A stretch of 63,877 nucleotides of DNA, filler included, from Collodictyon triciliatum (GCA_043381765.1; 12 parts of 12 records of this genome joined end to end with filler, not necessarily neighbours in it), one strand, 5' to 3'. Shown: positions 10,482 through 63,267, counted from the first letter of the whole stretch. Notes: generated from the sequence alone by a model not told the origin. A program made the numbers and translations.

Positions 10482-13400
10482 AATTTTCGTCATTCGAAAA
10501 AAGCTGTTGTTACACCACAAGCAATTAGTGAATACCAAAGGGGATACATGCAACGTTCTCCTTCATGTATTCCCAAGGTTATCTCAAGATTTCTTTCACT
10601 TAAAAAACTCATTCATCACCTGTATTGTTTTGTAACCCCTCTCGAATTTTCTTCGTCTTGCCTTCCCACATCATACATAGGCCTGTATACAATAAGCTGA
10701 TCGAAATAAAAGGTCATTGTTCCCCTTCTTATTTTTCATGCGACGCTGTTGCCATTGTCGTAAAATTCAAGACAGACCAACTAAATGAATTGGTAATATC
10801 GGAAAACGTCACTCAGATGCTGGAGGATGTATATGCGTGGGTTTCAATTCAAATTAAGTCTGTCTGGATCTCGAAAAATTTGAATGAAAACTTTTTTTTT
10901 CCTTTATAAATTTGAATGAAAATATGATGTGCTTTCGGTTTGGTCCTTTTTAAATAAAAAAAATTTTTCAATACAGACTCGCGTTGAACATCTTCGGCCA
11001 ACACAGCATTCATCGAGTGAAGGCTGGAGGTAATGAACAAACTCAATTTGAGGAGCTCTCATCGCACCTAGTCTCAGAAAAGAAACACTTTATACGCGTT
11101 AATGAGCTTTTCCCCTAAATTGAACCATACGTTTGCTGTATTTTATCATATTGGATGGATATGCTCTCCCAGGGTTTCGACTAATCGTCTGTGTTCAAAA
11201 TAAATTTCGATATTATCATTTCAGATCATCAAAAAGTATTATTCCGTTCTTGGTATCTTTCTTGATCTCATCATTTTTAATATAAATTTTAGGGAGTTCA
11301 GGGAATTTTTGAGGACAAAGCACATCCTTTGGGATGTGTTATGGCTTCACTGGAAATACTGCACAATATCCTTCTTTTATCCTCGAAATACAAAGAAAGA
11401 GTATGCAAAAAAAACCATACATTTGCATAACTATGATATTTTGTATGTAAAAAAAAAAAAAAAGGATGTTTTCTATGAATCGATCTTTATAATTTTCGAC
11501 TCGTTAAAGGTGCATGTTTCTATCGGCATTGGATGTGGAGAGGTTCACGGTGGGATTGTCAACTGCAAGAAAAGGTGCTTCGATATCATAGGAGAAGGTA
11601 AATAAACCATATTTAAAAAAAAAAGGATTTTACAAACCCGTTTTAAATGCGTTGATTTAACAGGTTTGGAATCAGCATTCCTCTCTTTGAGTCTAACAGA
11701 ACCAGGAGAACTTGTAATCGATGAAAAAGTGATGATAGATGCACCGGTAAATGGACCATCATTTTTTACTTAATCATTCAATACATAAAATTTATGCTTT
11801 GTGCGATATTTTATGATTTTTCTCAGAATTATTATGCAGGAATTGCGTGAATTTGCCACTTCTGGGAAAAAACTTCAAGAGAGAAACTTTTTCACTCTAC
11901 AATACTCGCGATATACGGCTTTAAAATCTGGTGTTACCAATGAAATCCCAATTACTCCTGTCTATCAAGATTACTTCAGGCCCGAGATAATGGATGATGT
12001 TTGAATTTTTTAATCCTTTCGAATTATGCTAGATAGAGATATTTATTGTCTCATTGATAGATAGATAGATTGTTGATGATGCGATACTTGTTGAATATTC
12101 ATTCTTTTGTAATATCATGTAATCATACGTAATTAGTACATCCCTCTAATTCTGAAGACATGGGCCCAATTTAAATACATATTTCGCAGATGAACCAAGT
12201 TGAATGCGAAATCAGGAATATGAAAAAAAAACACCCATATTTTAAATTCATCGGAGATCTTCGATTTAATGACAAGGTCACTGAGGTTGAATACAAAACA
12301 TCCCTATCTTCCCACAATAGTTGGCAAACCAATCGGTACGTAAAATTACATCTTGCTGTTCTAAGCATCATAATTTTAATCAATCCAAGCGTAATTTACG
12401 AAGCATTGATACCAAAACATAATCGTGCAGGGTTGTGATTATTGCTTTGAGTCTGTGTTGCTTGCTTGGTGGTGGAATTGATATTGGATTATTTGTCGAT
12501 TCCAATATACATATTACCTTCCAGAACCACTTTTATATTCTGTCGAGGTTTTTTATTGTCACTCCTGTCCTCGCTCTGTCTTGTTTGCTATTTATTTCAA
12601 AAAATGAAGAGTACTCAAAGCTAAAGGGCTACAGGCTGAATGAATGGAATGCTTCATATTGGATTGGTCTTGTTTACCTCATTTATGTCTTGGTCAGAGC
12701 ATATTTTGTTTTTCTGAATGATTCGTTTATGAACCAAAACGATATCTGGAACGCTACATACTTCAATGGAGAAGTATATATTTGGGGGATATTTTCCTTC
12801 TCAGTCATCACCATTCGTCCGTTTTACTTTATTGTTCTTTACATCCTCTGTTCAGTATCCATAGTGGTATATGCACCTTCTTTCTGGACTCATGACATGT
12901 AAGTTGAAACATCAATATTCCCATTTTTCTTGTTTGCTTCATTTTCTCTCATTGTAGATCATGGAGAAGGAGAAGAAAAAAACCATTGTCAAAATGGTTG
13001 CTGATGGATTAAACTCCTATTAGGTTTCCATCAAGAATTGATTTCTTTGTTTATGTCATTTTTGACTTCATCGTCCCTCAAATAATCCTGTGGTATTCTT
13101 TGGTGAGTCAAGATCGGCAAGCTCGTCAGGAGTTTTTATTTCAGGCACTGATGGCCAAGGTATTAAATTGCCATTAAACCCTTTTCATTAATTTTTTATT
13201 CAGGTACAAATAACTTATTTTCCTCATCTTTGATATTTTAATTCATACCGTTTTTGTAATGATAACCGTCCTGTACTCGTATTGTAATTCAAGGTGAAGG
13301 TGATGGTGATTTTTTTTTCCTTTACTCGATTCAAAGATGGTGATGGTGATGGTGATTTTTTTTTCCTTTATTCGATTCAAAGGATGGTGATGGTGATTAT

Positions 13401-14688
13401 AATAATATCAATAACAGCAATAACATGTAGTAAATAAAGGTATCAATAATAGAAAATTCAAGAATGTAACGAGGAAAAAGACGAGGCAGAATCTGTGTTA
13501 TTGTCTGTGGTATCCGGGGAAATATGTGCTGCATTGAAGTCAGATCGACAATCTTTAATTGAAATTATGAAGGATTCTATCATAATTTGTGTGCATGTAT
13601 CTACTGATGAGATAATTAGTCGCTATCAAGATTCTGCAGATATATTTGATGCGATATCTTGTAATTCAACTTCATTTGTTTTCAGTTTGCAAATACTTTT
13701 ATAAGGATATATTCCTTATACGCAGATATTCAACTATAGCATGCAACCTCATCAATTTAATAAATTGTCTTAGCTATATTTCGAGCTATGGAGGACATCT
13801 CCGGTATGTTCGGGATGGAATTGGTTAAAACAAATCAAGGTTCATGTACAGTAAGTTTTTCTATCGTTTATTGTCTAAAACATATGGCAGTTCGTAGGTT
13901 CCTATCGTGACCGATGTATATGTATGTGGCATAGATTGCAAACAGGTTAAGACCAGGTGCTGTTGCTGATAGTGGCTACGTATATGACTCAGTCCTTTGT
14001 TGCTTTCATGTGTGATTTTTTTTTAAAAAAAAAATCTAAAGAGAACTCCTGCAATATGATTCGTCCTGTTAATCAATTTAATTTTTTTTCCATTTATTCG
14101 CTTCTAAAAAATTAAACTTAAATTAATGAAAAGATCGTGGGTACCGTCTCAAGAAGCCTCCGTTCTTATGGTCTTGAAAACGTCTGCGTAAGGGTGGGTA
14201 TGGACATTGGTGATTGTATGAGTGGGTTTATAGGTGAGTGAGTGTATTAAATGGTATTTTATGTCGTGTGATATCCGGCCGAATCAGTGGTGCCTTTTCA
14301 TTATTATTATTATTATTATTTTCCTTTATTCGATTCAAAGTGCGGTGCCTTTTCATTTTGATGTAAATAGATAAAACTAAAGACGCCTTACTTTGGCAAT
14401 TAGGAAGCGCAGGGTTTGTATTCGATATTCTTGGCAAGCCTGGTGGGTTCATCTCCGAGCTACTTTCCCTTTCTTTCGCATTACTTGCACTTACCCATAT
14501 TTCGTCTTAAGTATCTTATAGAAATGCCAAGTAGGAAACAAAGAATGAAAGAATGAAAGAAAGAAACAAGAAAAAAGTGCACATGATTAACTTTGCTCAT
14601 AAATCCAACAGTGCACACCGCAAGCCGGCTCGCCTCCATCGTGCGAGATAGTGGCGTGATTGTATGCATCACACCTCCATCACACTGA
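10482..14688 (+). CDS. Membrane-bound class III nucleotidyl (adenylyl/guanylyl) cyclase-like protein, C1-TM-C2, 5' partial
   Basis: Domain 1: VSIGIGCGEVHGGIVNCKKRCFDIIGEG|LESAF...PGELVIDEK. Hydrophobic multi-TM block at 12431-13100. Domain 2 reconstructed across GT-AG introns: VRVGMDIGDCMSGFIG|SAGFVFDILGKP|VHTASRLAS. Exact 3' end uncertain. Confidence 0.72.
13299..13397 (-). mobile_element. Two tandem copies of the ultra-short stem-loop retroposon, with TSDs, in an intron
   Basis: T8-CCTTTACTCGATTCAAAG (13311-13336) and T8-CCTTTATTCGATTCAAAG (13357-13382), each flanked by (GAT)GGTGATGGTGAT duplications. Confidence 0.65.
14289..14357 (-). mobile_element. Ultra-short stem-loop retroposon with (AAT)n tail and 14-bp TSD
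   Basis: GGTGCCTTTTCATT at 14289-14302 and 14344-14357 flanks (ATT)n-TTCCTTTATTCGATTCAAAG. Confidence 0.72.
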
Positions 14689-16554: not shown

Positions 16555-19500
16555 ATGGGGAATCGGGTTTCGCAGACGCGGCTCAGCCGACGAGAGTCGC
16601 GGGTGTCTGTCTTTGGGGACTATGGGGCAGAAGCCTTGTCGCAGTCCTTTGCACAGCGCATCACGCAGCACAGGATTCGGTCTCTGGACGAGTCTTCTCG
16701 AAAGCGTCGCGTCATTCGTGTTGCCCTGTCCAGTAGTTTCAGCCAGCTCCCGCATGAGAAGCGTCATTTCGTGTCTGTTGTGCAACCAAGGTATTTCCTC
16801 CTTTTGTTATCCCTTTTCTTTTTTCTTTTTCTTTTTTTCTTTTTTTCTTTCCCTTTTCTTTTTTTCTTTTTTCTTTTTCTTTTTTTCTTTTTCTTTTTTC
16901 TTTTTCTTTTCTTTTCCTTTCTTTTCTTTTCATTTTCTTTTCATTTTCATTTTCTTTTTCTTTTTTCATTTCTTTTCTTTTCTTTTTCTTTTCTTTTTCT
17001 TTGTATTATTAATATCATTTCTTCCCTTTCTTGTCTCATGAACATTACATTAAGGTTAATCAAATACGCTGAGGATTGCGGATGGTCAATCACATTTATT
17101 GAATTTGATTTGAAGTCTATGATTGAACGTGAATATGCATTGAACGTAATGTTAGCTCGAAGCCATCTTATAACAATATCGTTTAAAATGATACAAGGCT
17201 TAGAATTTCTTATCAAACGTGCTTCTATGCTAGTGTTTGATTACGTGTTTTTTTTTTTTTTTGTTTTGTTGTTGCTAAGATCGAGCTAATCTAGGATATT
17301 CTTGTAGGGTGCTAGTGAAAATACATCGATACTTCTAATATTTGACTATTATATATGCGTGATTGGTGGGAGGTGGAATCTGAAATCTGAAATCTGAAAT
17401 CTGAACCTTTTTCTTATTAAAAACGTATATTTATTCTCATGTAACATCTGTGCTTATGTTGTTAAAATATTTACTTTTCTTTAAAATACAAAGGTGGTCA
17501 GCAGACGAGTTTCGTTTTAACGCATTCGATGAAGCTTTGCTTCAGGGTATATCTTGGATATCAGATTTTAATGGGAGAAGTTATGATGAATTAGAGGTTC
17601 TGTATGCTACATACAGTCACTTTTTTGAATAAGTGTTCCTATAATTACGTTAAAAAAATTACTCATAGATTTCATTTAAATTGTGGATGTCGAATAAAAT
17701 CTTATCATATTCATCCAGATTCGTCTATGCAGTCTCTCAAGTAATCAGTATATATCTAGAGTGTTCTTTTATTTTCAAAGCCCAGACCTCAGCATATTCT
17801 CGACTGATAACAAGTCCATGAGCGAGCAGCAGGTCTTCAAACAACAAATGAACACCTTATGACAAATTTTAGCAACTCTCTGTACTTATCAGTTATCTTC
17901 TTAAAATAAGCGCATCTACTTGAGGAAAGTAAAAGGAGAGATCGAAAAGAACTTCACACCGTATTACTTTGAAAACGCGATCAGTTTAGGAGAGAAAATA
18001 TTCTCAGACATGCAGGAGGAACTTGAATCCGATTTTATACCTGATCAGAACGGAACTGTCAGTTTAATTTTAATCGGAATTATTATTGCTATTTTGGTTT
18101 TTACTATTATTTGCGTATTTAATTTATGTAACAAAATAAAATCTTACAAAGGACTTTAAAGAAATGTGTGAATACCATGAATGGATTGCTCTAAGATTGC
18201 AGACATCTAACGAAGATAGAGGACATGAGATTCGAACATTGATGGAAAAGGTCATTCACTAAAATCTGAAGAAATTTATATATTAGCTTTTAAATTAAGT
18301 GCGACGATGTTGCAAGTAAAACGTCATGATAATATCGTTTTGACATATAGAAGAATATTGCCAATCAATTTAATAGTTGCTTCGTTCTTTTCACCTTTAA
18401 TCGATTCAAATATTTAATGAATTTTTTATATTAGTTAAATTACAATTCGATACGCGAGCATACACCTATAGTCTTGGTCGGTCCATCAGGTTTATTAAAA
18501 TAATAAAATGCCATTTAAAAGATAGTTCGATGTAGGCTATTTTTTGTTTACCATATTTTAACATTATAGCCTATATTCAAAATTTTAAATCTGTACAGGA
18601 GTTGGAAAATCATCCATGATTTCTTGTGCATATAAACGTATGGGCGAGATAGATAATTTTGTATGCGGTGTATTTTTTGTAGGGTACTCGAAAAGAAAAG
18701 ACAACAGACACAGGTTTTTGTTTTATTTTTTGGCTTCAGATATGCTTTCGCTATTGAGTTCATTCTCTGCTAGAATATTCTTATAATTTTTTCCCTTAAT
18801 TTGATTCCAGGGAGAGTATTATTATAATAGTAACTTCAAAAAAAAAACAAATGACAGAAACATAACATATGAATGTTTTAAATAGCGTCATGGAGAGTCT
18901 ATATATTAGTATCTGCAAAAAATTGGATATCCTTAAAAAACGTGCCTCACCACAGCCATTTGGTAAGAACCAACGCGTGATGTGCCCTTCCTGGACCATA
19001 AATACCAACCGAATTTTTCTATTATTTCTTTCAATTATTTGCAAGGTGGTGGGGATGTTGGCTTTTGTTAAATACCAACCGATATATTTTATTTTTAAGC
19101 TCATGTATATAATTAATATAGTGGAGACTGTACAGAGACAAGGATTCAGAGCTTTTTTGAATTTGGCTGCAAGCAAAAGATATAGGTATATACACTTTAT
19201 TTTTGTTTGTGCCAGTGTGTTTAATTTTTTTTAAATTTTAGCCTTTTACATATATTCCTGTTTAGTATAAAGCATTCCATCTATCATTGATCAAATGTAA
19301 TTTTTTCGATTTGAAGATAAAAATGCAAATATTTTGCATTAAATAAACTGCCAATTAGGGGCAAAAATATATGTCTATTCATAGATTCAGCTGACCAGCT
19401 AATCTCGACGACAGACTTGAATTCATACGATAAACTAGACTGGATTAGTGAAACACTGCCAGAAAATTTACATGTCATTTTTTCCATGGAATCATGCACG

Positions 19501-22500
19501 CGTCTGGGGACCCGTGATATACATCTTGCAAAGGTTATTGCCACGAATCGATGAAAGAAACCCCCCTTATTATTTATGTATTGATAAATTCTCCACCATT
19601 TCTTCATTTCAAAGCAACCAGCGAGTCATGAGTGGGACATACTTTCCATTTCCATGCCGGATTCTTCTCTCCAAATGTCTTTGATAAAGAAACAGCTTGA
19701 TGGATGTCGCCCTGCGTGGGAGTTAGTATCAACAACCATGGAGAGGCAAAAACTTAGTGGTATGGAAAACTCTGCATTTTATCATGAACATGATAATCAT
19801 GACTACTCATACTCAATTCTGGAGTTAGCGAAAACACTTATTATACTTTATGTAGCTGGGCCGATAGCTTACCAAGTAATGGCGGGCCATATAAGAAATT
19901 CTATTGAAGTTAATGGAGAATGTAATATATCTGGGATTACAAGCATGCAGAAAACAGCTGAGTTTATGGAGCATACACTTGAGCACTTTTGGATAGTAAA
20001 TTATGGTATGCATTCATTTTATGTCACATTTTATCCCTCAACAGATCGAGCTATAATGCTTTACGTATAATTGAGATGCAATCAAAATCATGTGAACGCA
20101 ATCAAGGAAAATATGTTGTACAAGCTACGTTGTCGTTATTTGCCTTTTCAAGATTTGGAATAAAAGAGTCTGATGTTAAATACATCGTTCTTTCATCCAA
20201 AGTTGGATTATCAAGCAAGGTTGATTGGTATGCCCCTTCTTTTCCTCTTTTTGAATTAATTTTATTTTGATTTTTCCATTATTTGATTCAAAAGAAATAA
20301 ATTTTATTTGCTGCTCTATCGATGATGTAACTAAAATTGAGGAAGATACGATACATAAGAGTTTATTAAAAAATTTTTATTCCATCTCATACTGAAGAAT
20401 GTATTTATCATAGGGAGCATTTCTTCCCTAGATTATGCAACACGTTTCTGGTCTGTGTTTTTGGAAGGTCAGTTGTTTTTTATCTCCTTATTTTATATTT
20501 TTTTTTCGTCTGCCAACTTATATTTCTATTCACCAGTCGCTTGAATGAGTTGAATGATTTCTGCTGTTTTTCTTATTCCTTGTATCTTGTTCCTTGTTCC
20601 TTGTTCCTTGTTCCTTGTTCCTTGTTCCTTGTTCCTTGTTCCTTGTTCCTTGTTCCTTGTTCCTTGTTCCTTGTTCCTTGTTCCNNNNNNNNNNNNNNNN
20701 NNNNNNNNNNNNNNNNNNNNNNNNNNNNNTCTTTGTTCTTTGTTCTTTGTTCTTTGTTCTTTGTTCTTTGTTCTTTGTTCTTTGTTCTTTGTTCTTTGTT
20801 CTTTGTTCTTTGTTCTTTGTTCTTTGTTCCTTGTTCTTTGTTCCTTGTCCCTTATCCCTTATCCCTTATCCCTTATCCCTTATCCCCCATTTTTCCCTAC
20901 CAAAAAAAAGTACGGATTAATTTCGGCCTCATATATAAGGTCTCTATTGTTTTGTGAATAAACTTGGTTGCGTAATTATTCATCTTGTACTCATAACTAG
21001 GTATCGAATTCGTAATCGAGATATCGAGTGCGTCCTTCGACAAATATTTTGGAAGGCGCTATCGAGCAGATCAGAGTTATTTATTTTACATGCAGAATTT
21101 ATGCAAATGTTGCATACACAATCAAACTATGAAGAGGCTTCGGCTGAAGCATGCCATGGCTTTCTCAGATTATTAGCCCATCATGAACTTATTAGTCTTT
21201 TAAGGAATGATGATGTAAGCATCTATTATGTTTGAAATGGAAACAAAAATGATTGCGCTATAGTTTAAGAAAAAATAAACAATTACGGATTTCACTCAAT
21301 TTACTCATTTGGTATCCATATACTCAGGTTATCTTAGATTTATTGTCCAATTTTCGGTGCGATTTTGATTTTTTCTGGGCAGAGCTATCCAAGCATGGAT
21401 ATGACCAGTTGTCTACTTATAGGAATCATATCACTGTTCGTCTTACTTCTTTTTTCTTGTCATGCTTTTCTTTTTACTCATATAATTCAGTTATTATCCT
21501 GAGAAGTTGAAAGCAATTATTGCATGCGGGTTGAGGCTTATTACTAGAAAAATTTTATGCTCCTTAGTCCATATTTTCCAAACATGTGCAGTATGAATAA
21601 ACGTTAAGCTTATTTATATGGGTTTGCTTATTATTCACGAAAAGACGAAGGGCAATGCCTCAGATGAGCTTATAAGTTATTTTCGTGAAATTGGAGAGAT
21701 AGACTGCCTGGGTCATGCATTAGAGGAAAGAATTGCCATCTCGTCCACTGATGGTTAGTGTTCTAAATGATATATTTTCTTTTCCTAATTAGTAACTCTT
21801 CACATATAAACCCAAAACAGTCTGCCCTCGGTGACTTAAATCACTATTTACTAGAGTCAAAGGCTGGAGACTACCATCTCTTAGCCTCTCTTCGGGAAGA
21901 GGCGAGAAGATACGAAGATGCGATAATACTCCTCAAAAAGAATGTCAAATGTTTGAACAAGTCGATGAATTCTACACTCAAAATTATGCGAGTACCGAAC
22001 CCAGAAACCGCAAAAACCTATACTCGTTTGGCAGCTGTCTACCAAAAAATAAAAAAGTGATTTATTTATTTGCTTTGCGTGTACATATGCATCCTTTACA
22101 TTTATGAAATAGTTCTGTATAATGTCGTCCTTTTTTTCAAAAAAAACAAACAGTCATATTCACGCTTCTAAAAAAACCCCATATCCGTTTATAGTTTCGA
22201 AAAAGCTCAAAAATATTATGAAAAATCCATCAAGCTAAAGATTAAGCAGTCCGGAGAAGTGCACCACGAATTGATGGACGATTATGAGGGATTATCATCG
22301 ATTATGGATGCTATGGGAAGGTAGTGTCATTGTGTTTTTTTGTTTAAAAGAGAAAAAACAAAGAAAAATATTTTTCATCATGGGCGGTACTGTTCAAAAA
22401 ATCCACTCAATTCATTTAGAAAATATGAATCTGAACAATATTTGGAGAAAAGCTTGCAAATAGCGCTTCTCACATATGGTGCATCCCACCCTAAAGTGGC

Positions 22501-23605: not shown

Positions 23606-25477
23606 ATGGATGTGAAGAAAAAGGACATAAATGATTGCGTGGGACCCTCCAAAAAATGTGGTAATGAAGGAATCCACCATTTATACGGTTAACTCCGACA
23701 TATTGAATAGTCCTACACTAAACATATAACTTAAGAAAGGTGCACTGTCTAAATAATCAAGCGAGCCTGCCTGCTTTCATCGACACATTGACTGGTTAAC
23801 CCATGATTTTTGAATATCCTAGATAACTCAAAAGGAAATGAAGGGACATCTGAACAGAACATCGATGAGTGCGAACACGAAGATAATCCGATGAAAGTCA
23901 CTCTCCTGGACAAAATCATGTAAATTAAGCAAATCATTCTTGTATCAGGACAAAAAAAAACGGTATAACGCCTCAACTGCAGTTATTAATTATAGCAACA
24001 ATCTTATTCTTATTCTTTTTTATGGGAAAAATCGATATAGATTGCATCAGATTTACTTCAGTCAGGTGAAAGAGGAAGAGATATTGTCCCTCAACTTGGA
24101 AGGTTCCTCTGTACTCCATGTTGCTTGTTATCATGGGTACATTTCCATCTGCCGGTCACTCCTCAACCCTGATAATGCAAACTCCACTGATTTTTATGGT
24201 AGATGTAAAATAAATTTATATAAAAAAAACGAGAGCTGTATGATATCTAGAGTTTAAAATAAATCATCATATGAATGTTTTTTTTCTTTATTCGATTCAA
24301 GGGAAGGAAGGGGTTTTATATTTTTTTTAATCACCGCATGAATGTTATTCCCTTTATTCGATTCCAAGTGAAGAATACTATAAATATAACATATTATGTG
24401 GGATAGTTTGTTATAAAAAGAGAACTAATTTACTGTTGTATTCATTATGTAATCGTAATTAAAATATTCATTGGCACAGGGAACAGCCCTCTCCATTTGG
24501 CGTGCATGAATGGGCATATAGATATTGTCTCTTACATCCTCTCGACATGCCTAGTCAAATTAAATCTCCAGAACAGAGAAGGAAGGACACCAGTCCATTA
24601 TGCATCAGTGCATGAAAATGATTCGATGATTTCGACTCTTTTGCGCGCAGGGTTTAGGTGGTAACCATATTGTATGAATTTCCATGACTATTTTCTTATC
24701 ATAAATTCTCTTCAGCTTATTTGTATCCGACAAACAAGGGGACACGCCCCTTCATATTGCATCGAGATTTAATTCTGTAAGCTTCGATAAGCATATGGCA
24801 ATGCGCTATGTTATTTTTTCTCGAAAAACATGAAAAAAATATGAGTATTACTCATTATATGGGCACTCCTTAAAGAAATCCTGGACAATTTGAACTCACA
24901 GAATCGGGGTTGTATGTATATTTTGTAGGCGTCGGTTGTGAAGGTTATAGGAGCTGCGTATCGTGGTTCATACCATTTGAATTGTAAGAACAATAAGGGA
25001 TTCACTGCACTTCATGAGGCTGTTGATTTGCTGGCAAAAGGGATGGAATCATCCAAAGTGATTACCATGCTTGTTGAATTTGGTTGTGACCCTTATGTTC
25101 TTGGTATGTGAGCTCTTGTTCTGATTGTAGTTTCGATTTATGAAAAGGATGTACTTTACCAAAGATATTTTGATACAACACAGCTATCAAGTTTGAAAAG
25201 AACTTTTAAAAAAGAACTTACAAGGCCCCCAACACAAACGTTATCTTTTCTTTTTTTTAAAAAAAAAGTAATAATCTGGCAATAAAGTTGTGACATTAAA
25301 CAAAATGACCAGATGAATCCAATCAAATAAGCCCATTATCCATGATTGTACATCTTGGGAATGAAACATTGCTATGGGAAATGTTATCTAATAACAATCA
25401 GAAGCACTTTTATCCCAATCATACCAATGGAGAGAAGTGCACATCTCTACTTCATGTTGCTGCTTCGCATGGTCATG
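23606..25477 (+). CDS. Ankyrin-repeat protein, multi-exon, 3' partial
   Basis: GSSVLHVACYHGY; GNSPLHLACMNGHIDIVSYIL; GRTPVHYAS; GDTPLHIASRFN; GFTALHEAV; LLHVAASHGH. Start codon tentative. Confidence 0.88.
24271..24368 (-). mobile_element. Two further copies of the ultra-short stem-loop element, in an ankyrin-gene intron
   Basis: T-run+CTTTATTCGATTCAAG (24286-24301) and CCCTTTATTCGATTCCAAG (24350-24368), each preceded by ATGAATGTT. Confidence 0.5.
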
Positions 25478-27892: not shown

Positions 27893-30885
27893 TTTTTTTC
27901 TTTGTTGTGTGGGTGTTTGTGGGGGGGAGCTTTCAAACTCACACATTATTGTCTTGTCACTCTTTCTTAATTTCACTCAATTATCTATCTATCACTGCTA
28001 AATTGACGACATTCCCTAGCTTTGCACATCCCCAACTGCATGTACTCCTATTCCAGCAGGCACAGGAATTCCAAATGCAGACATAATTATGTTCTTCACC
28101 TATCGAAGTGATGGGTGTAGTTCTTCTGTTTTAGCATATGCTAGTTACTGCGACCGAGACCAAAACGACCGGTGATATATCCTTTCTACCTAATCATCTA
28201 CCACTTCTACTCTTTTCTACTCTTTTCTACTCTTTTCTACTCTTTTCTACTCTTTTCTACTCTTTTCTACTCTTTTCTACTCTCTTATTTGTTATTATTA
28301 GTATTATTATTTCAACTTTTGAAATATGGTTGAGGCTTCAATTATAATATATTTTCAACTTCGTTTAAGTGCCAATAGTGCATGCTATGAGTATATAAAA
28401 TAAGGGAAACCCGCTAACATTTGCTACGATACCACGTTTTCAGTCCTATTGCGGGATACAGCAACATATGTCCATTATTAGTTAGCAGCACATACAGTAA
28501 CCACGACAAGGTCCTTATCAATTGCGAACAATGTTCATAGTATTTGCTAGGCATTTTATCAAAGTAATGTAAAGCCTAATCACTTAATATCATTTTTAAT
28601 GACGCACCCTTTCACCTTAATCAAGGCGATTGTCCTCATCCATGAAATTTCTCATTCATTGGGAGTATCTTCCGGACACTTTCCTTTTTTTCGATATCCT
28701 GATGGCGCACCACGTTCTCCAAGGACTTATTATGGGTATCCTCCTATAGTGGTAAAATTATTGTTTTGTTTCTGAGACCTGAATTTACACATTGTCTAAC
28801 CTCGCAAACAATTCCTCATATCAACCATTTATCCCTTTTTCGTCCAATTTGTCCAAGAAATGCAGGCACTTAAATAGCTATTGTTACTAGGGCGGGTACT
28901 ATGCAGCAGCATCGAATACAGTCAAACAGTTTAATGAAAGAGGTGGATTCGTCAACAAGATTGTCACGCCGCGTGTCCTCCAGGAATTTTCCATCCACAC
29001 GAAATGCCTCAGTATCAATGGTTTGGATTTTTTGACCCCCTCAACTCCCAGTTTCGATTCATAGAGGGAATTATGATAATACCATAATTTGAGTCATGGG
29101 AGATAAATATATATCATGCCTGTCACCAAACGAAGCAGTACACAACTTAGATCTGTGTATCATTTTATTTTATTTTGAATTGCACAAAGAAAAAATTATA
29201 AATTTATACGAATAAATGAGAAAAAAATCAGCTGCTTGAATTTTGATTTTCGTATAATTTCTTACAAACAGTATCATTTTGCTCCTCATCTCTATTTTTA
29301 GATAATGAAAACTAAAGAAAAGAATAAGATGATAATCACGAAAATATTTAATGATTGTGCAATTGAAAAAAATGAATTTCTTTTAAATGCCTGGATCATA
29401 TAATAGGTGTTGAACTGGAAAATGCTGGGGGTTCTGGGACAGCTGGATCTCATTGGGAAGGTCGATTGTTGATGCAGTATGATTTTCCCTATGTAATAGT
29501 TGCCATTAGATTTGATGGCATTATCCATGTTGTCGATACAGCTTTATGAACAATTTTGATCCATCTAAACGAGAAAAAAAAATCCTATATTCAATATAAA
29601 GTTAAACAAATCAAATTTGAAAAGAAGGGCTGTGTTTGTAAAATGATATATTTATGGTCTTTTCCTCTTGTTTTCGGTTTTTTTTTCATTTTTCTTCTTT
29701 TTCTTCTTTTTCTTCTTTTCTTCTTTTCTTCATTTCTCATTCTGTTTTATTTTTATGCCTATTTATTTATCATTTTTTAGAAATATTTTGAGCTGGTTAG
29801 CGCTCCAAATCAAATATAAATAATCCCAGGGACTACATGACTGGCTCGCTTAAAACCAACGCCGTTATATCTGCCATCACCCTGGCCCTTTTTGAGGACA
29901 GTGGATGGTAACTTCAAACTCATGAACTATACTCAATAATCTATCCTTTGAATTGAATCAAGCAAAACAAATGTCATATAATATAGATTTACCCCTTGCT
30001 ATTCATAATTCATATCATTTTATTGTCATCAACAATATGTATAGCTTGCCAAAAAAAATTATATTACATCTTCTAGGTATTACCCTGATTATTCGAAAGC
30101 ATCAACACTTCAATGGGGACTCAAGAAAGGCTGTGCATCTATCAATCAAGCTTGCATTTCAGGAGGTGTTTCAGCTGAAAGTGCCATGTTCTGCACAGAC
30201 CAGACCGTTTGTATTAAAAAAAAACTTTTCCATATTGCTGTGTTTTTGTTTGTATATATTGTTTCTTTTCCTCTTTTTTATTTTATTTTATTCTTATCTT
30301 CAATTTGTGCAAGATGATGGAGGCCTTCGCTTCGATTCGCTAGCCATCATTTACATGTTTATATAATGTTTATTGAAATATTCTTGATATCAATCGAATA
30401 TAACAAGCTTTTTACTGCAACACCACCACCAGTCAGGGTCAGCTTGTCCGTCAGATTTTATGTCCAAAGGCTATTGTGCCGTCTATACATACTCCTCTGC
30501 ACTGCCAGTTCAAAATCAGTACTTTTCAAATCCCAATATTGGCGGTTCCAGCGAGACTGATTACTGTCCTTATGTCAGAAAATACTCCAATGGATTGTAA
30601 GAACTTATATATACCAACCATGCGGATTGCCTTCGCCATAATATTCACGTGTGCATTCGTAGACAATATCACTTTCGTGTTCATAACCATTTCATGGCGC
30701 CCATCAGATGCACCGATTCTTCTCTTCAACCATCAACAAACTATTACGGCGAAACATATGGAGCAGGAAGCCGTTGTATCATGTCCCAGTTGCTCCTATC
30801 CGGCTACTCGCCTGAACCCACGTCACCGGTCGGCCGATGCCACCAAACGTCATGCGAAATGGTCAGCGGCGTGCCGACTCTTAAG
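26674..30885 (+). CDS. Leishmanolysin/invadolysin-like zinc metalloprotease (peptidase M8), secreted or surface-bound, 3' partial
   Basis: Signal-peptide-like MTRGSSFSALIAAVFLVTLPLCLC; RCDHD pro-peptide; HEISH at 28641-28655; ELENAGGSGTAGSHWE; Met-turn DYMTG...SAITLALFEDSGW|Y; QYFSNPNIGG..TDYCP. Confidence 0.92.
28207..28283. repeat. 10-mer tandem repeat (CTACTCTTTT)n in an intron
   Basis: Direct inspection. Confidence 0.9.
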
Positions 30886-31130: not shown

Positions 31131-34100
31131 CTTTGGATATATCCAGCATGAAGTTGAGTCGCTGGATGTATGGAATCGCCTTCTCCTGGTGCAACACATC
31201 GTACAGACTGCCTTGGTGCATAAGCTCGCAGACGAGACATGGCTTCTCCGTCTCAAAGCAAGCTCCCATGTACAACACGATGTTTGGATGTCTCAACTCC
31301 CTGCGTTCCATCCATATAAATATTACAAAAATATAGTTCATTTAAAAAACAGAACGACGGATACTTTGACATTATGCTCCAAACAGAAGAAAATCTCCAA
31401 GAAAATATATTCATGCCCTGTTTCAAAAGACATTTTATTTTCTGATAACTTACACCATAATCGAGATTTCTCTCTTGAACGATTCCATCTGCTCCTTTGT
31501 CAGCCTTTTCCCGACAATCACCTTAATAGCTACTTCTGTACCTCTCCATTCGCCCTTGAATACCTGCAAAAAAAAAAGAAGCATGGATGAGTCACTCAAT
31601 CATACAAGAGCCACATGGATTCACAAAAATGCCATAGCAAGCCACATTTACGTGGTTTACATGGTAAATTAGCAATTTTTTTTATATTTCATCAAATGCT
31701 TAAACGCGCCTCTCCGAAGCTTCCCCGTCCAAGAAGCTGACCATATGTGAGTTCGTCAGGATTGATGATTCCCATGTGTTTATTCTCAGCGCCCTTCATC
31801 TGCTCAACCATCTTCTTTCGATATATGTATGCTGACACAGCACCGACGACAACAAGTCCTCCGCACACTCCCCCGATGGCAGCAAACGTGCTGATATCTG
31901 ATGAGCTTGAGTCTATGCCGAAAGTCCATTATGAACACTGGTGCACAACAAACTAGATATGATTCCATCAGAGCATATTATCGTGTTTATGTTATCTGAT
32001 TTACTGTTTAATAATGAATATGTTGATTGAATGGCAATACCTTTTTTGCATTCCCCCTGAAGAAAAAAAGAAAAATTTGTTCAGTCGCCTTATCAGTTTG
32101 TATATCACGGCAAAGCAAACTTTGGAACGATAAAACATTCAGTTGCGCAGAAATAAAATCGCTTACATTCTCCATGTAATATCCTGCGTCACATAAACAC
32201 TCTGATGCTTCTTCATTAAAGCTGGAGTGTTGTGGACAACCTGGTACGAGGTTCCAACGAGCAATAAAAAAAAATGTGTAAATATAGCGTAAATAGCGTA
32301 TATCTCTACTATCCTGCACAAAATTGAAAGGAAGAATAAAAAAAAAAAATAGCATAAATAGCGTATCCACACTCAGTTACAATATTCACAGGCGTTTTTG
32401 TATGAAGAGACAGGTACATACTTGCATGCGTGATTGTGAACCCTTCACAGTTTTCGCATGGACCATTCTTTTCTCCTGGCTTCGCCTCCTCCACCACAAA
32501 CTGAATCGTGAATCCGCTGGACGAAAAATACTCTGCCTTGGTCTCACCGTCTTCGGTGCTTATTTTACTATGTGTGATTGGTTTCCCCTCTTGTGTAGAT
32601 ACCACATCGACTCTGGTATTTGGAAAATTATGACCTTGATATGAAACAAAAGCACCCGGACCTATAAAAGAAGGAAGAAAAAACAAGGAAAATATGCAGT
32701 CTCCATCAAACCTATCTTGTTTTCTGATGCGCTGCGCGATGATGATGTGAGTTGTGTTTGGTAGAATCCATGTGCAGTTTGTTCCCCGCAAATACATCCC
32801 TTCACCGCTCCCATCTCCAAAAGTCCCGCCTTTCACACCACTTCTGATGTATTCGGGTGTGTTGGAGCAGAATCCTACACCAAATCCATGAAATCTTTAG
32901 AAACACGATTATCACAGCATCGTCTAATAAATTGACAAACACAAAGATGACGTAATACCCGGTTTGTAGAAGACCACTTGGTTGCTGATAGAGTATCCAT
33001 TTGCTCCTCCAAAGCTAATCATACCGCCTTGCATACTTCCGCCGCTATGTTTTGTAATGGATTCGTAGCTTGCAATCACGTTGGACTGAAGAAGTTTCGC
33101 TTGCCTCTTGAATCCTGGGAACGTTGATTTTGAATAACACAGGTGTATACTTACTACGAGTATGGTGTTGAAATGAGACACAGACTGTGCTGACTCATGA
33201 CAAGTGCACTTCTCTTTGATGCTTGGTCTAGTCCATGAGCGATGCTGTATCCTCCAAATCCTCCACAGATGTGGTTCGAAAGCGGGACTGGTACAAAGTC
33301 AGAAACATACTCCGTCTTGTTCCAAAGGGCCGATGCTGACAAGAACACATCCATTTAGACATTGAATAAAGAAAAAACATGCGACTAATTTTCATACAAA
33401 AAAATCGCACAATCATGGATACTGAAAACAGAGAGGGAAGCATCTTCAAACAACATATCATCACAACCTGTGTCGTATGTCCATGCGTCATTCAGTACAT
33501 TTCCAGAGAAATCCACTCCTCCATACATAAACAATTTCGACTCGTCGATTGCACTAGCGCAATGATACAGCCGTCGGTTCTAATCCCATTATTTTCGTTG
33601 TAGTTAAAATATCTGGAAATGACTCTAATTGAAAGGCATGTTCTTTATGTTTACATAGGAATGCTGTATTCTCCTTACAGGCGTTGCTCCTGCGATGGAC
33701 ATCGACTCCATACTTCGCCTATTCACGCCCAGTCTCACGGATGCGGAGTAGAACTCTGTTTTCTTTGTGCCCTGAATAATCTGCTTCGTTGAGCAAACAA
33801 ATGCTTAGACAATTGAATATGCTCATCAAAACTAAAAAGCAAAAAACAAACAGCAAAAAGCAAAAAGCAAAAAGCAAAAAAGCTGCATATTAATCAGTGC
33901 ATCGACTTCCCATTGAAGTTGTCAATTAACTCTCATAACCTGCCCTCCCCACATGAGGATATCATTGCCAATCAGCACAGAGACCATCCCAACTCTGCTC
34001 AACGGCCGCTGGAATGCAGAGAGTTTGTTTATGTATTCCATCACACCCCATTTCTTGGTTTCTGTGTATTAGGATATGATAACTCATTAGAAGACAAGCA

Positions 34101-39100: not shown

Positions 39101-41663
39101 GTCAGGTACTACTATGAAAAGGTTTTGTTAGAGTCCACCCTGAGAAAGCATTATATTATTCTAGTAGCTAGAATTTTGTATGAATTAAAAAGATATATGT
39201 TTTAATTCTATTAAAATCCTTTTAATGTCGTTGAATCAGCCACTCTTGTTTTACGAACATCGTTTCTTTTAATTCATACATCATCCAATCTCATGTGTGC
39301 GCTATGAAGGGTTAATGTAAAGTTTTACCAAAAAAAAAAACAACCAGACTATCGTTTACTTAGAATCACAAAACCAAAATTCATGAGGATAAAGTCATGT
39401 AAAGTACATCATACTTGAATTTGGCTGATTGGAGCATTATTCTTTTGACTAAAAGTACTAGGTTGAAAGGAGTATTATTTTCGTACCATAAGAAAGAATT
39501 ACCTTTTTTTTATGTTTCCAAAATATTGAATTATAATGTAGTGACTAATTTAATTATAAATAAAGTATATTTCTTCGGAGTCTGCCCAATAAATCAAAAA
39601 CATTATTCTTACCGATTCCATAAATGTTTTTTTGGCAGAATCTATTCAATTTTGTTGGCTGTCTGTTCTAATCTGCTGAATATTAGATGTGAATAAGTCA
39701 ACGAAATCGATTTTTGGAGTCATATAAAGCTAACGAATAAAAAGAATGTAATAGTATATATCAAGAATAGTAAAGAAAAAAATCAGCTTTTGGTCATGCA
39801 GATTTTATCCTCTTCTTCGGCGATAGCGAGCATTCGAGTGAACTATTAATGTTACGAATCAAATCAATTTTATTTTTCATGATTCTACATCATATGCAAA
39901 GTATAAAAAAATTCTAGTTCATCTGATAGAAATAAGTGGATGGTTTCTTTTATTCTTCCATTCAATTTTGTGCAGGATGGTGAGGATGTTAGCTTTAGAT
40001 AAGTGGATGGTTAAATATTCATTTTTACCCATCAATTGTCAAATTTACAGCCTCAGTCACAGGGGATGCAGTCACTGGAGATGAATTTTTCCTTTTTTTA
40101 TTTTTTATTTTTATGGGCCGCATCCTAATCATTTTCTCTATCCTAAAGGCAAATGTGGATCATTTAGGTACTAGTTTGTGTATACGTGAAAAAAATGTAA
40201 ATATAGATATGTTTTAATGTGGCATACGATTGATAAGACTTAATATATAGTAAAAGGCTATCCAACAAGATTGATTATTAGCCCTTACTCATCATAAACC
40301 CCTCAGGTGCACGAAACGATGAGTAGCTTAGTCGATAATACTGATAGTAAACCTCCTGGCATATTATATTCACGGAAATATCAAGAAATAAAAAATAATC
40401 AAGAAATAAATATGAAAATAGCAAGTTTGGGTATAGTATGTGGATGGCGAATTAAAAAAAATTCGCCAATATGTGAGTCTCATGATAAAGGCAGTTTCCA
40501 GAAGAATGAAGATAATAGATTTGAAGAACCGATCTAAAAGCAAAGATCTGACTAAATAAGATGTACTTAAAGCCTGTATCTGTGGAAAATCCATCGAAGT
40601 AAGCGTGATGCGAGCAGCACAGGGACCAGAGACTCAATCGCCACCGCGCCTGTGCGAAGCGTCACAAACTGCATGAGATAGTGTTAGAAACTACTTCCAA
40701 CTATTAATAATCATGTAATGAGAAATTAACTCAAGCACTAATGATGGTAGACTTAAACAAAGAGAAGACATGGGAAGAGGGAAAGATCACATAATATGGG
40801 TGCGTGACCAACAATGCTCTGCAGCAGGAAAGGTTTTGGCGACCCAAACAATCACAGCTCTCATTGACTAGCGAATAGTAATAGTATAACGAACGATGGC
40901 CCAAACAAATTGGCACATAATACTAGAATAGTTTAATTCATAGTTATTTGGGAATGTAAATGTGTTTTCTGGATAGTTTCGAGCTTTTGTTGATAAGTAA
41001 CAACATGACCCAGAGGTTATATAACGCGTGGAGAGGGCCAATCGGAGAGTTTTGCTGAAAGGACTCATTTTCTGCCATTGCTGGTATCTTCAATAGTAAC
41101 TGTTATGCGCCAGCGTTTGATAGACTGTCCCACCCTCGATCGACTCTTGATTTTCTGGCAAATGTAAATGTCGCGCTTAGGTTCCACTTTGTGTTTTGTT
41201 TGATATAAAATAAGGATTTGTTTTCGTGTAAGGTTTTTCAGTTTGTTTGGCCTTGTGACGTTTTTTTCTTTTTTCTTTTTTTCTTTTTTTCTTTTTTTCT
41301 TTTTTTCTTTTTTTTTCTTTTTTTTCTTTTTTTTCTTTTTTTCTTTTTTNNNNNNNNNNNNNNNNNNNNNNNNNNNNNNNNNNNNNNNNNNNNTTAATTA
41401 ATTAANNNNNNNNNNNNNNNNNNNNNNNNNNNNNNNNNNNNNNNNNNNNTTTTTTTTTTTTGTTTTTTTTGTTTTGTTTTTTTTGTTATGTTTTTTTTGT
41501 TATGTTTTTTTTGTTATGTTTTTTTGTTATGTTTTTTGTTATGTTTTTTGTTATGTTTTTTTGTTTGAAGCAAGAATCATATTCATAATATGGTATTTTT
41601 CGGATAAGCCTCTTTTTATCTCGGTAAATTTTGCTTTGTCTCACTTTATATTTAACCCGGCAG

Positions 41664-45729: not shown

Positions 45730-46462
45730 AGTGTGTGCTTGGTCTAGTGTGTCGGGTTTGTAGATTTAGGCTTGGTTGAACTTTACAAAGTATTTTGTCT
45801 ACCGTGCCTTTTTGTGTGTGTCTATGAATTCTCGTAATTAGTCCGATTCAATCAGTTTCATGAGAAGATATTCTAGAATATTAATAGCAATCACCCTTTT
45901 CTACATGTAGACATTCACTCATTATTATAATTGCATATTCTGGCTTCTCTTATTCTTTGGGAATACTGGCAAATCGTGTGTGGATTAGTGCAAAGTTACT
46001 CGAAGAAGACTGCTTTTTTTCAATTGGTTGTTCAGTGTTCTCTTGCACTACCTCGTAATCCGTTCGGTGATGGCTGGAGTCTTTGACCATTTAAGTACTG
46101 GAACGTTATATACCGCTCTCATGACCTGACGCTCGGTGACGCATATTTGCGCACCCTGTGATGTTTTGTGTCGTAGACACAGGAAATGGTCTGACGTGTC
46201 TTTGCGCATTGTAGAACGACAGCATAGCCTTTTCTATCTGTGCGAACACTTCACTACGTTTCTGCGATACACTACCGCTATTATTATCTATTATACAATA
46301 TTTTATTATTGGTTTGCTTTATTAAATACTTTGCATAAATTATTAATATTTAATATTATATATTATAATTTCCATATATAGATGAATTATTTTTGGTATG
46401 TTTTTAGTGTTTTTTGTTTTTTATTTTTTTATTTTTTTTGTTTTTTTGTTTTTTTTTTTTTT

Positions 46463-46541: not shown

Positions 46542-46642
46542 NNNNNNNNNNNNNNNNNNNNNNNNNNNNNNNNNNNNNNNNNNNNTTAATTAATTAANNN
46601 NNNNNNNNNNNNNNNNNNNNNNNNNNNNNNNNNNNNNNNNNA

Positions 46643-49695: not shown

Positions 49696-51639
49696 GTTTC
49701 GAAATTTTATCAGATTCAACATCTCTCACTTTATCTTTTCACACAACCATTCAATTTACCTTTATTATTTTCATTCCAACTCCATTTTATAGTCAATATT
49801 TTTTTGTCAAAAAATATAGAAAAATAATTATTATGTCCTCAGATGATATTATATTTATCTATATAGTTAGATAAATATAATATCACTCAGACCTAATTTA
49901 AAATAATACTTTTTATTCACAGAAAAGTTGAAAACGGTTGGAATTTCATCACACACGTACATCCTGAATCAAATACAAAGGTGATCAGTTTTCTTCCCTT
50001 CTTGATTGATGAAATGTTTCCCTCTATATCCAATTCAGATTTAATCAAGAAAGTGCTCTTTTGGGATTCTGGAAAACTGCGAAAATAGCCTTCATGTGTA
50101 GTTTTGAAATTCATTTATATGATGTATAATTTTTATAATAATTTTATAATTTCTTCAGTTACCATCGAAAACTAAGCTATTTTGTCCGTACTGCTCACGC
50201 TTCACTTTTGACCCGCAAAAACATATGATGAAGCACTTTTCAGATGTGAGACTAGAGTCGGTAAGATTTGTCTGTGCGACATAGTAGAGATATAAAAAAT
50301 TAGGGATACTTTTTTTTTTTTTTAAAAAAAGAGATTCCGTGAAAAAAAATCGCATATTAAAACATATGGTCACATCATATACAGACCCTTATTGGTGGTC
50401 TACGTGTGCAGCACATGCGCCTGAAGGATAGAAGAGAGGTTATATATGCACTCATTCTATGTAATTTACTGCATATAAGAATGAGTGTCAACATTTGCAT
50501 AATCCCATATATAGCGAGGAAGCAAGGGAATGGAAGGAGCACACGAAGACCATCAGCCACAACAAATAGAAGATGAGGGCCTTCCAACCGCTAAAAGGCT
50601 AAGACTCACCATATCTGAATAACCTCCATTAAATATAATTGCACCGGAGGATGCAACATTATAGCCAAAAGGCTATTTCCTTGTTTTCCTTTTCCTTTTT
50701 GAAGATATAATGACGCAGTTTACCAAAAGGCAAAGAATGAGTCCACCCTTAATAAAAAAAAGTTTTGACAAAAAATTTTAACGACTCAAAAAGCTGCCCT
50801 GACCGTATAGAAATTCTGAGATTATATTGAATATTTAATTTTCTTACTAATTTAAATTTATTTATTTTGTATCCATCTTAATCACCCTTCATATTTTCAG
50901 AGAGAATAAAAACTTAATACTTACCCATTGTCATGTGCCCCTGTCCAAAATCTTTGGGACATAAAACCGTACGAGATAGACTTCGATTCCTTTTTGCAGG
51001 AACGCTCTGTATCCAAAAAGGTGTTTCACTCCCTTCAAGGCCTTAATCTGAATACCATACGCATAAATAAAAAAAAAATAATAATAATAATTCAAACATA
51101 CTTGCATCAATCTCTGAATTTTGATTGCACATCAACGTAGACTCTCCAGACTCGCATACAAAAAATTTCAGAATGGTTGATGAATCAATACTAAACGAAA
51201 ACTTTGTATTTTGATAGGCAATATCGAGTGCTCATTTGGGTCTTAAAACACGGGAATTCTTCAATTCATGGAACGACTTTATATTGAAAAAGTATGCGTA
51301 TCTAATTTTTCGGATGAAAATTTCATTTACCCCTTTTTCGTTTTATCCAGAACTTAGCAGCACAAGAAAATGTATGTCAAAAATGAATCGATTTGCTTTT
51401 TATATTTGTGAGGATATACCCTCTTCTATACTTTTTTCTTCTTATCTTCACACTTTCCTGTCACACAAGCATGATGTGAATTGTGATAGAATTTCTCGTT
51501 GTTCATTGATTCAGAATATTGCATTTATCAAACTTTACCTCCACCATCTTACACAAATTGAAAAAAAAATAAGAATAAATAAAATATCATAATACATTAA
51601 TCAGCTTTTGTAGTTTAGTTTCATTTTTTTCTTTTCTTT

Positions 51640-62292: not shown

Positions 62293-62326
<34 letters not shown>

Positions 62327-62363: not shown

Positions 62364-62421
62364 CTCCTTTTCAAAAGAATTTTTTTCCTTTATTCGATTC
62401 AAAGCTCCTTTTCAAAAGAAT
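62364..62421 (-). mobile_element. Ultra-short stem-loop retroposon with perfect 17-bp TSD
   Basis: CTCCTTTTCAAAAGAAT (62364-62380 and 62405-62421) flanks T6-CCTTTATTCGATTCAAAG (62381-62404). Confidence 0.78.
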
Positions 62422-62506
62422 ATTACCATGTAATTCCAAGTGATGATTGTGAATTTAATTACTTTCTCCCTTTTATTAAAAACAACAACTATCTTTCTAC
62501 TTCTAG

Positions 62507-63020
62507 ATTTGAGGAGGCTCTTGATAATTACAGAAAATGTTTAGCACTGAAAGAAAAGACTCTAGGCTCCAGACATCCAGATGTCGCAACTATATATGGC
62601 AACATCGCCTCTGTGTGTGAACAACAGGAAAAGTAAGTTACTCTTCCTCACCTCCTTTTTTTTCATGTTTTTTTATTATATCGGATTATATCACAGCTAA
62701 AATGACTCTTTTATAAAATAGCCTCATCAAATCTCTGTTTCTTTTCTACGTAAAGGCTAGATGAGGCATATGACCTGTGGAAAAAGTGCTTGGATATTCG
62801 CATGGGGATATTGGGACCCAATCACCCGTTCACCCAAGAAGCTCAATCCCAGTTCGATTCGGTAGAGGAGAGGCTTCAGAAACGACCAGCATCAGCGCCC
62901 CCTAGTGACGGGCATTCCAGTGACGGAGAAGCTTCTCATCAAATCATGGAGCCTGCGGAATCTGAGGATGATGCCTTATCTACTGCCGATGAAAAAATCA
63001 ACGAGGTAGATGAAGCATAG
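62507..63020 (+). CDS. C-terminal exons of a kinesin-light-chain/NPHP3-type TPR protein, 5' partial
   Basis: FEEALDNYRKCLALKEKTLGSRHPDVATIYGNIA|LDEAYDLWKKCLDIRMGILGPNHPFT..., with an acidic tail and TAG stop. Confidence 0.85.
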
Positions 63021-63230
63021 AATTTTGAATAAGCACACCTTGATTCTCTATTAACGAGGGAATTAAAGGATGAAATAAAACCATCTGGTCCTCCGATAAA
63101 CAAACAGTGTCTCATTCTATTTTATGTTTGTTGTTAAATGATAATCATTTCCCGAAAAATGAATTGACAGAGCATTGAGGGTATATCCCTAGGTCACATA
63201 AAGAAAGTATCAACCTTCAATCTTCGATTC

Positions 63231-63267
63231 CTTTGAATCGAATAAAGGAAGAAGAAGAAGAAGAAAA
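63231..63267 (+). mobile_element. Ultra-short stem-loop retroposon, plus-strand copy with (AAG)n tail
   Basis: CTTTGAATCGAATAAAGG followed by AAGAAGAAGAAGAAGAAAA. Degenerate flanking duplication ACCTTCAATCTTCG / ACATTCAATCTCG. Confidence 0.62.

Follow-up and report, generated by a model that had tools for sequence, protein, structure and literature searches.

Truncated copies of retrotransposons lacking long terminal repeats (non-LTR retrotransposons), such as L1, CR1 and I, show loss of 5' sequence, target-site duplications (TSDs) of variable length, an A-rich or simple-repeat tail and AT-rich targets, and the combination of variable-length duplications with a one-sided A tail is the mark of target-primed reverse transcription. 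U6-L1 chimeras exemplify retrocopies made by template jumping, and the Drosophila suffix exemplifies a short element, its size being a few hundred bp. According to the portions cited, suffix is a discrete short retroelement and also the 3' terminus of the F-element, a long interspersed nuclear element (LINE) (PMC1868783, PMC3136478), and Platy-1, at ~100 bp, has been termed the shortest short interspersed nuclear element (SINE) of primates (PMC4864456). Here we analyse a 63,877-base stretch of DNA from Collodictyon triciliatum (GCA_043381765.1), referred to throughout as the window, in which an 18-nt core with an A-rich tail (family A) recurs between duplications of local sequence, together with a longer relative (family B). 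The reading that we favour, with a probability of roughly one half, is that A and B are tail-only, non-autonomous retroposons, that is, DNA copies of short A-tailed RNAs carrying the motif TTGAA-N(2-5)-GAATAAA(GG).

Results

A dispersed 18-nt core

The core of family A, CTTTGAATCGAATAAAGG, is an 18-mer containing AATAAA. It has eight matches in the window at two or fewer mismatches, four of them exact, against an expectation of 0.01, and none of 100 shuffles reaches eight, which confirms the dispersed recurrence claimed in an earlier note on this DNA. The minus strand has seven of these matches and the plus strand has one, and together they are distributed over four of the pieces of which the window is composed. 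Three further copies, decayed or truncated and provided with flanking duplications, bring the family to 11, at a density of approximately one insert per 5.7 kb. In a blastn comparison of piece against piece, nothing was returned but the tailed A core, a pair of family B copies and a low-complexity pair; the A motif is therefore the main dispersed repeat in the window. The string for tallying copies of this family is GAATCGAATAAAGG. The copies are listed here with the TSD scores that are defined below.

13292..13398, minus strand: A1 (core 13319-13336, one substitution) and A2 (core 13365-13382), a doublet ordered TSD-core of A2-A8-9-TSD-core of A1-A8-9-TSD in an (ATCACC)n-like target; scores 22 (A1) and 16 (A2), the A2 duplication being exact over 15-16 bp at ~13341/13383
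14289..14357, minus strand: A3, core 14323-14340, exact 14-bp TSD AATGAAAAGGCACC (14289/14344), extra GCA, tail AAAA(TAA)n; score 14
24262..24368, minus strand: A4 (24285-24302) and A5 (24351-24368), a doublet with a 17-nt repeat, ACATTCAT..GATT, after each tail (14 of 17 alike, the first repeat 26 nt from the A4 core)
62364..62421, minus strand: A6, the cleanest copy, core 62387-62404, A6 tail 62381-62386, exact 17-bp TSD ATTCTTTTGAAAAGGAG (62405-62421 and 62364-62380) with 24 nt between the repeats; score 17
63212..63277, plus strand: A7, core 63231-63248, tail (AAG)5AA, TSD AACCTTCAATCT / AACATTCAATCT (11 of 12); score 9
18394..18411, minus strand: A8, two core substitutions, degenerate purine-rich tail, 7-nt flanking repeat (score 7, control P 0.08)
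20253..20310, minus strand: A9, decayed core TTTTGAATCAAATAATGG (20275-20293), tail A5, 14-nt TSD (13 of 14); score 11
18771..18827, minus strand: A10, decayed core CTGGAATCAAATTAAGG (18793-18810), tail GA6, extra CC, 16-nt TSD with two mismatches; score 10
10876..10922, minus strand: A11, 5'-truncated to the last 7 core bases, ATAAAGG + A9G (10891-10907) between exact 15-bp TSDs TTTTCATTCAAATTT (10876/10908); score 15

The copies named in the earlier note are all real. Two of its intervals, 24286-24301 and 24350-24368, were displaced by one or two bases from the positions given above, and its degenerate copies near 20276-20294 and 18394 correspond to A9, with its 13/14 flanking repeat, and to A8. 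A10, the 7-nt copy A11 and a doubtful copy at 14090-14108(-) are additions to it; A9, A10 and the doubtful copy were returned by relaxed and profile searches, and A11 by the direct-repeat scan described below. Beyond the known copies, nhmmer with a profile of family A gave only weak matches at 7608-7625 (E 0.0095, tail-less) and 29946-29966 (E 0.25), which are left uncounted. Perfect and decayed copies stand side by side in the window, implying that activity was spread over time; the older copies A9 and A10 carry TCAA in place of the TCGA of young copies, possibly by CpG decay.

Doublets are over-represented, with two pairs within 70 bp against 0.12 expected, and are compatible with re-insertion into an existing A tail or with unequal exchange between duplications. 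Checking of the A4/A5 doublet for a three-way repeat aligned just the 17-nt repeat that follows each tail.

The 5' boundary

At every one of the 18 core positions, 6-8 of the eight core copies agree; over the next 20 positions upstream the figure falls to 3-5 throughout, as expected from the earlier claim that the 5' ends do not scatter. Homology ends at the first core base, none of the eight sharing any sequence further 5'. Longer A copies were not seen, and nothing in the motif search would hide them. Random truncation of a long RNA is not predicted to give ends so free of scatter.

Duplications, tails and targets

Flanking repeats were collected by a direct-repeat scan (exact, at least 11 bp, spaced 19-450 bp) and scored in a constrained test, in which the gap between upstream repeat and core may be 8 nt at most and that between core and downstream repeat 25 nt at most; matches count +1 and mismatches -2. 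At 4000 random positions the 95th percentile of this score is 8, the upper tail being due to microsatellites. Eight of the 11 A copies exceed that percentile with scores of 9-22 and duplications of 12-17 bp; among the eight core copies, five score 9-22, one scores 7, and A4 and A5 score 2 and 3, an adjoining TSD being absent from both by this test. The duplication is exact in four A copies (A2, 16 bp; A3, 14 bp; A6, 17 bp; A11, 15 bp), which include the three that the earlier note had singled out as its best, and in three of the five B copies (12-14 bp).

Tails consist of A5-A9, of A4(TAA)n or (AAT)n, or of (AAG)5AA and invariably follow ..AAAGG; they lie on one fixed side, as previously described. 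Taking A and B together, tails reach A12 and are preceded by ..AAAGG or ..AATAAA. The tails of A3 (14303-14322) and A7 (63249-63265) are (AAT)n and (AAG)n microsatellites, respectively. In the nine targets that were reconstructed, T precedes the duplication in five, and the first base of the duplication is A in six; the targets are AT-rich, and the preference is to be regarded as soft because leading A's are indistinguishable from tail A's. Between duplication and core there are 0-7 unshared bases: none in A2 and A6, and GCA, CC, TC, CAT or TCGATTC elsewhere. The TCGATTC of A7 (63224-63230) is the inverted complement of core bases 5-11, and GAATCGAA is read on the minus strand at 63223-63230.

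Because of their variable 12-17 bp duplications, the A-rich tail on a fixed side and the AT-rich targets, the A copies look like products of target-primed reverse transcription, in agreement with the signature originally proposed. The core is also bounded by an inverted repeat of 4-5 bp, as might be the case if a cut-and-paste DNA transposon with ends CCTTT..AAAGG had left the inserts behind, either as footprints of its excision or as miniatures of itself. Transposase-made duplications have fixed length, however, and the flanking repeats measure 12, 14, 14, 15, 16 and 17 bp, unlike the pairing of inverted repeats with a fixed duplication length that defines miniature inverted-repeat transposable elements; the variable A-rich tail is on one side only, and family B has equal flanks and tails without inverted ends. 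We consider a DNA transposon highly improbable. A stationary motif of host gene regulation, such as a poly(A) signal or terminator cassette that is not mobile, would account for the AATAAA within the core, but it appears equally remote in view of the duplications of otherwise unrelated local sequence that flank the core, of the decayed copies that show no conservation, and of the antisense placement of A4 and A5 inside an intron.

That intron (GT..AG, ~24199-24479) belongs to an ankyrin-repeat gene on the plus strand. The 24285/24351 locus is the one for which genic context was placed, and for this locus the earlier statement that copies always lie in introns or intergenic DNA stands. An introner-type element was discarded here, since A4 and A5 sit 85-110 nt inside the intron with its GT and AG outside the elements.

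The sequences themselves could conceivably have arisen artefactually while the DNA was amplified, made into libraries or assembled, considering that the pieces are short, with low complexity at their ends, and that published collodictyonid drafts, to which the DNA of the window may belong, come, as far as the cited part of their description goes, from amplified single cells and are chimera-prone (10.64898/2026.06.11.730069). Chimeras, however, join distant sequence and do not set an 18-mer with a tail between duplications of a local target; core and duplication both carry substitutions, as in old insertions; and two related families have the same architecture. Of the explanations weighed, this one is the least probable.

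Sequence rather than structure at the 3' end

The earlier note had described the core as a 3' stem-loop, a proposal that the analysis does not sustain. The hairpin into which core plus tail folds has a free energy of -3.1 kcal/mol (z -1.26), a value that 24 of 200 shuffles equal; substitutions at stem positions in A4, A5 and A8 all disrupt pairs, and family B is without the stem. A conserved and stable 3' stem-loop, as is required for the "stringent" type of recognition in L2-clade LINE/SINE pairs, is thus lacking, and the hairpin as recognised feature is weakened, the broken pairs being weak evidence given that dead copies are unselected. As judged from the aligned copies, the feature common to A and B is the sequence TTGAA..GAATAAA, not a structure.

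Family B and the shared 3' end

Family B comprises five copies with inserts of ~38-56 nt, possibly 93 nt, having duplications of 12-14 bp and A-rich tails. Three inserts of 53-56 nt emerged from the direct-repeat scan, and a profile built from them added two copies and an intermediate.

18999..19082, minus strand: B1, 56-nt insert, exact 14-bp TSDs TCGGTTGGTATTTA, nhmmer E 1.5e-12
39932..40012, minus strand: B2, 53-nt insert, exact 14-bp TSDs AACCATCCACTTAT, E 5.6e-15
32290..32366, plus strand: B3, ~45-53-nt insert, A12 tail, exact 12-bp TSDs (longer with mismatches), E 9.8e-12
30251..30371 (profile match 30263-30336), minus strand: B4, B body with A-rich tail, E 1.9e-13
51529..51593, plus strand: B5, decayed, homologous to B4 only from CCTCC on, TSD ill-defined, E 3.8e-4
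36448..36478 (profile match 36448-36471), plus strand: intermediate copy, CACATTTGAAAGTAAGAATAAAGG + TAAAATA, TSD score 5, unconvincing

Read in the orientation of the tail, B ends in ..AAAGCYAACATCCYCACCAYCYTGCACAAAATTGAAWGRAAGAATAAAA(A)n, and the A core can be aligned with its last ~20 nt. In the intermediate copy, a B-like 5' part (CACA) is joined to an A-like ..AATAAAGG / ..GAATAAAGG end. The 3' motif common to the two families is TTGAA-N-GAATAAA; in the form T[TG]GAA-N(1-8)-[GT]AATAAA it has 11 matches in the window against 2.5 expected, the maximum in 200 first-order simulations being 8. Given that A, B and the intermediate copy share their 3' end, A constitutes the shortest branch of a wider family complex that is defined by this end and has copies of 7 to ~56 nt, possibly 93 nt; the A unit is not isolated. 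A spliced-leader origin was rejected, as it is 3' ends and not 5' ends that A and B share.

The 5' ends of B1 and B2, which are preceded by 2-3 unshared bases, lie no more than 1-2 nt apart. Those of B3 and B5 are 11-13 nt further in, as is that of B4 unless its insert is 93 nt long, which it is if a weak 12/14 TSD is real. On the 93-nt reading, the 5' part of B4 holds CTAGCGAATCGAAGCGAAGG, which in our own alignment agrees with the A core at 14 of 20 columns and includes the 8-mer GAATCGAA. Of this 8-mer the window has 14 occurrences, where 3.8 are expected, and eight of them are within A or B elements. The CTAGCGAATCGAAGCGAAGG segment lies 5' of the B body (30265-30357, minus strand) between the inverted 7-mers ATGATGG and CCATCAT, and the predicted hairpin that places it in the loop is non-significant (z -1.61; 12 of 200 shuffles fold equally well). 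It could be an internal A-like module of a master element, or B4 could have inserted into the tail of an old A copy.

The antisense strand of B (39944-39999 and 19013-19068, plus strand) presents a T-rich tract followed by TTTTGTGCAG|GATGGTGAGG, a likeness to a splice acceptor closely followed by a donor that could arise by chance from the complement of the tail.

Searches for a partner and for precedent

The Pfam scan covered 144 of the 167 stop-to-stop open reading frames (ORFs) of at least 85 aa in 62.9 kb, the other 23 running into N linkers or into the heptamer microsatellite near 20.5-20.9 kb, and gave no match to reverse transcriptase (RT), endonuclease (EN), integrase or transposase. 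ARAGORN found no tRNA gene in the window, and Rfam gave no match there, either at the gathering threshold or at E <= 1; no hammerhead, hepatitis delta virus-like ribozyme or small-RNA parent can therefore be proposed from the evidence. SINEs are defined by an RNA polymerase III (pol III) promoter in a head derived from tRNA, 7SL or 5S RNA. With an 18-nt unit and no tRNA or Rfam match, the description as "SINE-like" in the earlier note does not apply.

In the literature searched, neither a 14-mer of the core nor its complement occurred, and searches for collodictyonid transposable elements, by titles and abstract openings, gave nothing on elements of this kind. For collodictyonids, the part of the literature drawn on quantifies repeats solely in bulk, at 17.2% and 8.8% (10.64898/2026.06.11.730069); the preprint in question describes deposited drafts for Collodictyon and Diphylleia. 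The 22-mer of core plus AAAA had two matches in bacterial and archaeal contigs (L001 2001-2022 and L002 2001-2022, Bacteroidota metagenome-assembled genomes); both lie inside an open frame encoding SFESNKGKLPWPV, as judged by eye, and were set aside as an unrelated coding coincidence.

Composition of the window and host genes

The window is made of 13 pieces, twelve of ~5.1 kb and one of 1.7 kb, with linkers of the form N44-TTAATTAATTAA-N44 and a single 45-N gap at 20685-20729. GC content is 0.30-0.48. Many of the pieces terminate in homopolymer, microsatellite or other low-complexity sequence, and simple repeats appear to interrupt this assembly. A heptamer microsatellite at 20586-20840, shifting from (CTTGTTC)n to (CTTTGTT)n, crosses the 45-N gap.

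Intron-split eukaryotic genes are present, among them ATP-dependent phosphoenolpyruvate carboxykinase (PEPCK), alpha-SNAP, Kelch and ankyrin genes and a leishmanolysin-like fragment. The closest named relative of the alpha-SNAP is a transcriptome protein of Diphylleia rotans (78% identity). The PEPCK gene (43487-45765, minus strand, at least five exons) is likewise closest among named relatives to Diphylleia rotans (70%), followed by dinoflagellates (54-60%), and has 92% identity to one further database record. By these two genes alone, the host is placed among collodictyonid-like (CRuMs) eukaryotes. At 46642-46760, a 12-nt tandem repeat, AATACCGAATAC, is translated in frame as (IPNT)n and opens a 480-aa frame without Pfam match (ORF 46598-48040, plus strand).

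Discussion

Interpretation of families A and B as tail-only retroposons would place their origin in a known type of reaction, for which we infer an RNA intermediate and an enzyme supplied from outside the window. To proceed, a non-LTR retrotransposon EN/RT would nick an AT-rich target, prime on the short A tail right after ..AATAAAGG and copy to the 5' end of the RNA, 18 nt away in A and ~38-47 nt away in the two B subtypes, with the occasional addition of a few extra bases or a template jump. A second nick, 12-17 bp off, would give rise to the duplication, and tails may later expand into (AAT)n or (AAG)n microsatellites. The bases that the RT needs might be found within TTGAATCGAATAAAGG. In the youngest copies, those with perfect duplications, tails are short (six to nine A's), which suggests that priming took place near the motif and not on an extended poly(A).

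The central question is the nature of the sharp 5' end, for which a true end of the RNA has about an even chance of being correct. In its favour are the boundary common to all eight core copies, the extra bases that copies do not share, the inverted bases of A7 that suggest a snap-back, and the clustered ends of family B. Extra bases at a junction are what RTs leave on running off the end of a template. Such an RNA end would most likely come from the processing of a longer precursor, which must exist because 18 nt cannot hold a promoter.

The same observations are open to a different account, in which the inserts are dead-on-arrival copies of a LINE whose full-length RNA serves as template and whose reverse transcription or cDNA joining stops at a specific site, 18 nt (A) or ~38-47 nt (B) from the tail, for example at a bound protein or a stable structure of the 3' untranslated region (UTR). 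The hallmarks of reverse transcription fit this account equally. In many LINE families, extreme loss of the 5' part is common; the last ~20 nt of B are homologous to A, which so was formerly longer-bodied; lengths of 7, 18, ~24, ~38, ~47 and possibly 93 nt are seen; an 18-nt unit has no room for a promoter; and the B4 interval, which may run into more element sequence able to form a hairpin, may show a longer master. On the other side, none of the eight core copies shares sequence 5' of the core, and so efficient a stop is unlike the truncation profiles of LINEs; no LINE body and no RT or EN fragment accompanies the ~17 tail copies in 62.9 kb, as surveyed by the ORF scan and by blastn; unshared bases at the 5' junction fit run-off from a template better than internal pausing; and the predicted hairpin of B4, as already said, is not significant. 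A site-specific stop on LINE RNA is the main competitor, although we regard it as the less probable account. It and the true RNA end become one account if the short RNAs arise by processing of the 3' UTR of the LINE itself.

Several findings weigh against tail-only retroposons with a true RNA end. A4 could carry 26 extra bases 5' of its core, if the ACATTCAT..GATT repeat (14/17) is its duplication. Copies shorter than ~14 nt are missed by the motif search, and the length distribution is thus censored at the short end. Truncation does occur, as in the 7-nt A copy and the several lengths of B; the B4 interval is possibly an A-like module within a longer master; and no RT or EN gene was seen in the ORFs scanned. 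The sample, 11 A and 5-6 B copies, is small. The need for a longer precursor, finally, makes the favoured reading hard to separate from truncated LINE tails.

A stronger form of the tail-only reading, which we put forward only tentatively and hold to be rather unlikely, is that an RNA of ~18 nt with a short oligo(A) is the complete template, that the sister units of ~38 and 47 nt are so likewise, and that precursor processing sets their 5' ends, TTGAA..GAATAAAGG alone sufficing for capture by the RT. Judging from a hint in the B4 interval, processing might perhaps free the loop of a hairpin. Should the 18-nt unit be a complete template, it would be the shortest retroposon described, a minimal recognition tag for target-primed reverse transcription in a deep-branching eukaryotic lineage. 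It would set a new lower bound on recognition in that reaction, with bearing on the choice of RNA by LINEs and on minimal 3' tags for RT-based insertion tools. If the inserts are LINE tails with a site-specific stop, the significance is reduced to an unusual truncation profile. Inserts so short are probably below the size that standard repeat finders report, yet they give rise to A-rich microsatellites and spread AATAAA signals over introns. No mobile elements would have been characterised before them in collodictyonid-like eukaryotes, for which only the bulk repeat percentages were found in print in the sources drawn on.

Regarding known systems, there exist clear analogies and equally clear differences. 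With truncated non-LTR copies, A and B share the variable TSDs, the A-rich tail and the AT-rich targets; unlike those copies, all eight A cores end at one base, 18 nt from the tail, and the window holds no element body. Rather than being scattered along an element, the ends of A fall at one base, with one shorter copy besides, and those of B in two clusters. SINEs that share the 3' tail of a LINE are non-autonomous elements mobilised in trans, with duplications and with subfamilies that have a common 3' end; A and B resemble them in the 3' end that they share and, as we suppose, in mobilisation in trans, but A is without a pol III head and its unit is 5-fold shorter than Platy-1. Suffix is the nearest precedent for a tail-only element, yet it is an order of magnitude longer and self-transcribed, compared with units of 18-50 nt that are known here from DNA copies alone. 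The inverted bases of A7 and the possible composite of A-like sequence and B in B4 are similar to chimeric or template-jump retrocopies such as the tripartite pseudogene of Magnaporthe, as far as the cited part of its description goes (PMC2104539), whereas simple inserts of a single module make up most of the copies here. In its mode of spread the element follows known LINEs and SINEs; family A itself falls outside the definition of a SINE because it has no pol III head, and outside the usual picture of a truncated LINE because its 5' ends do not scatter.

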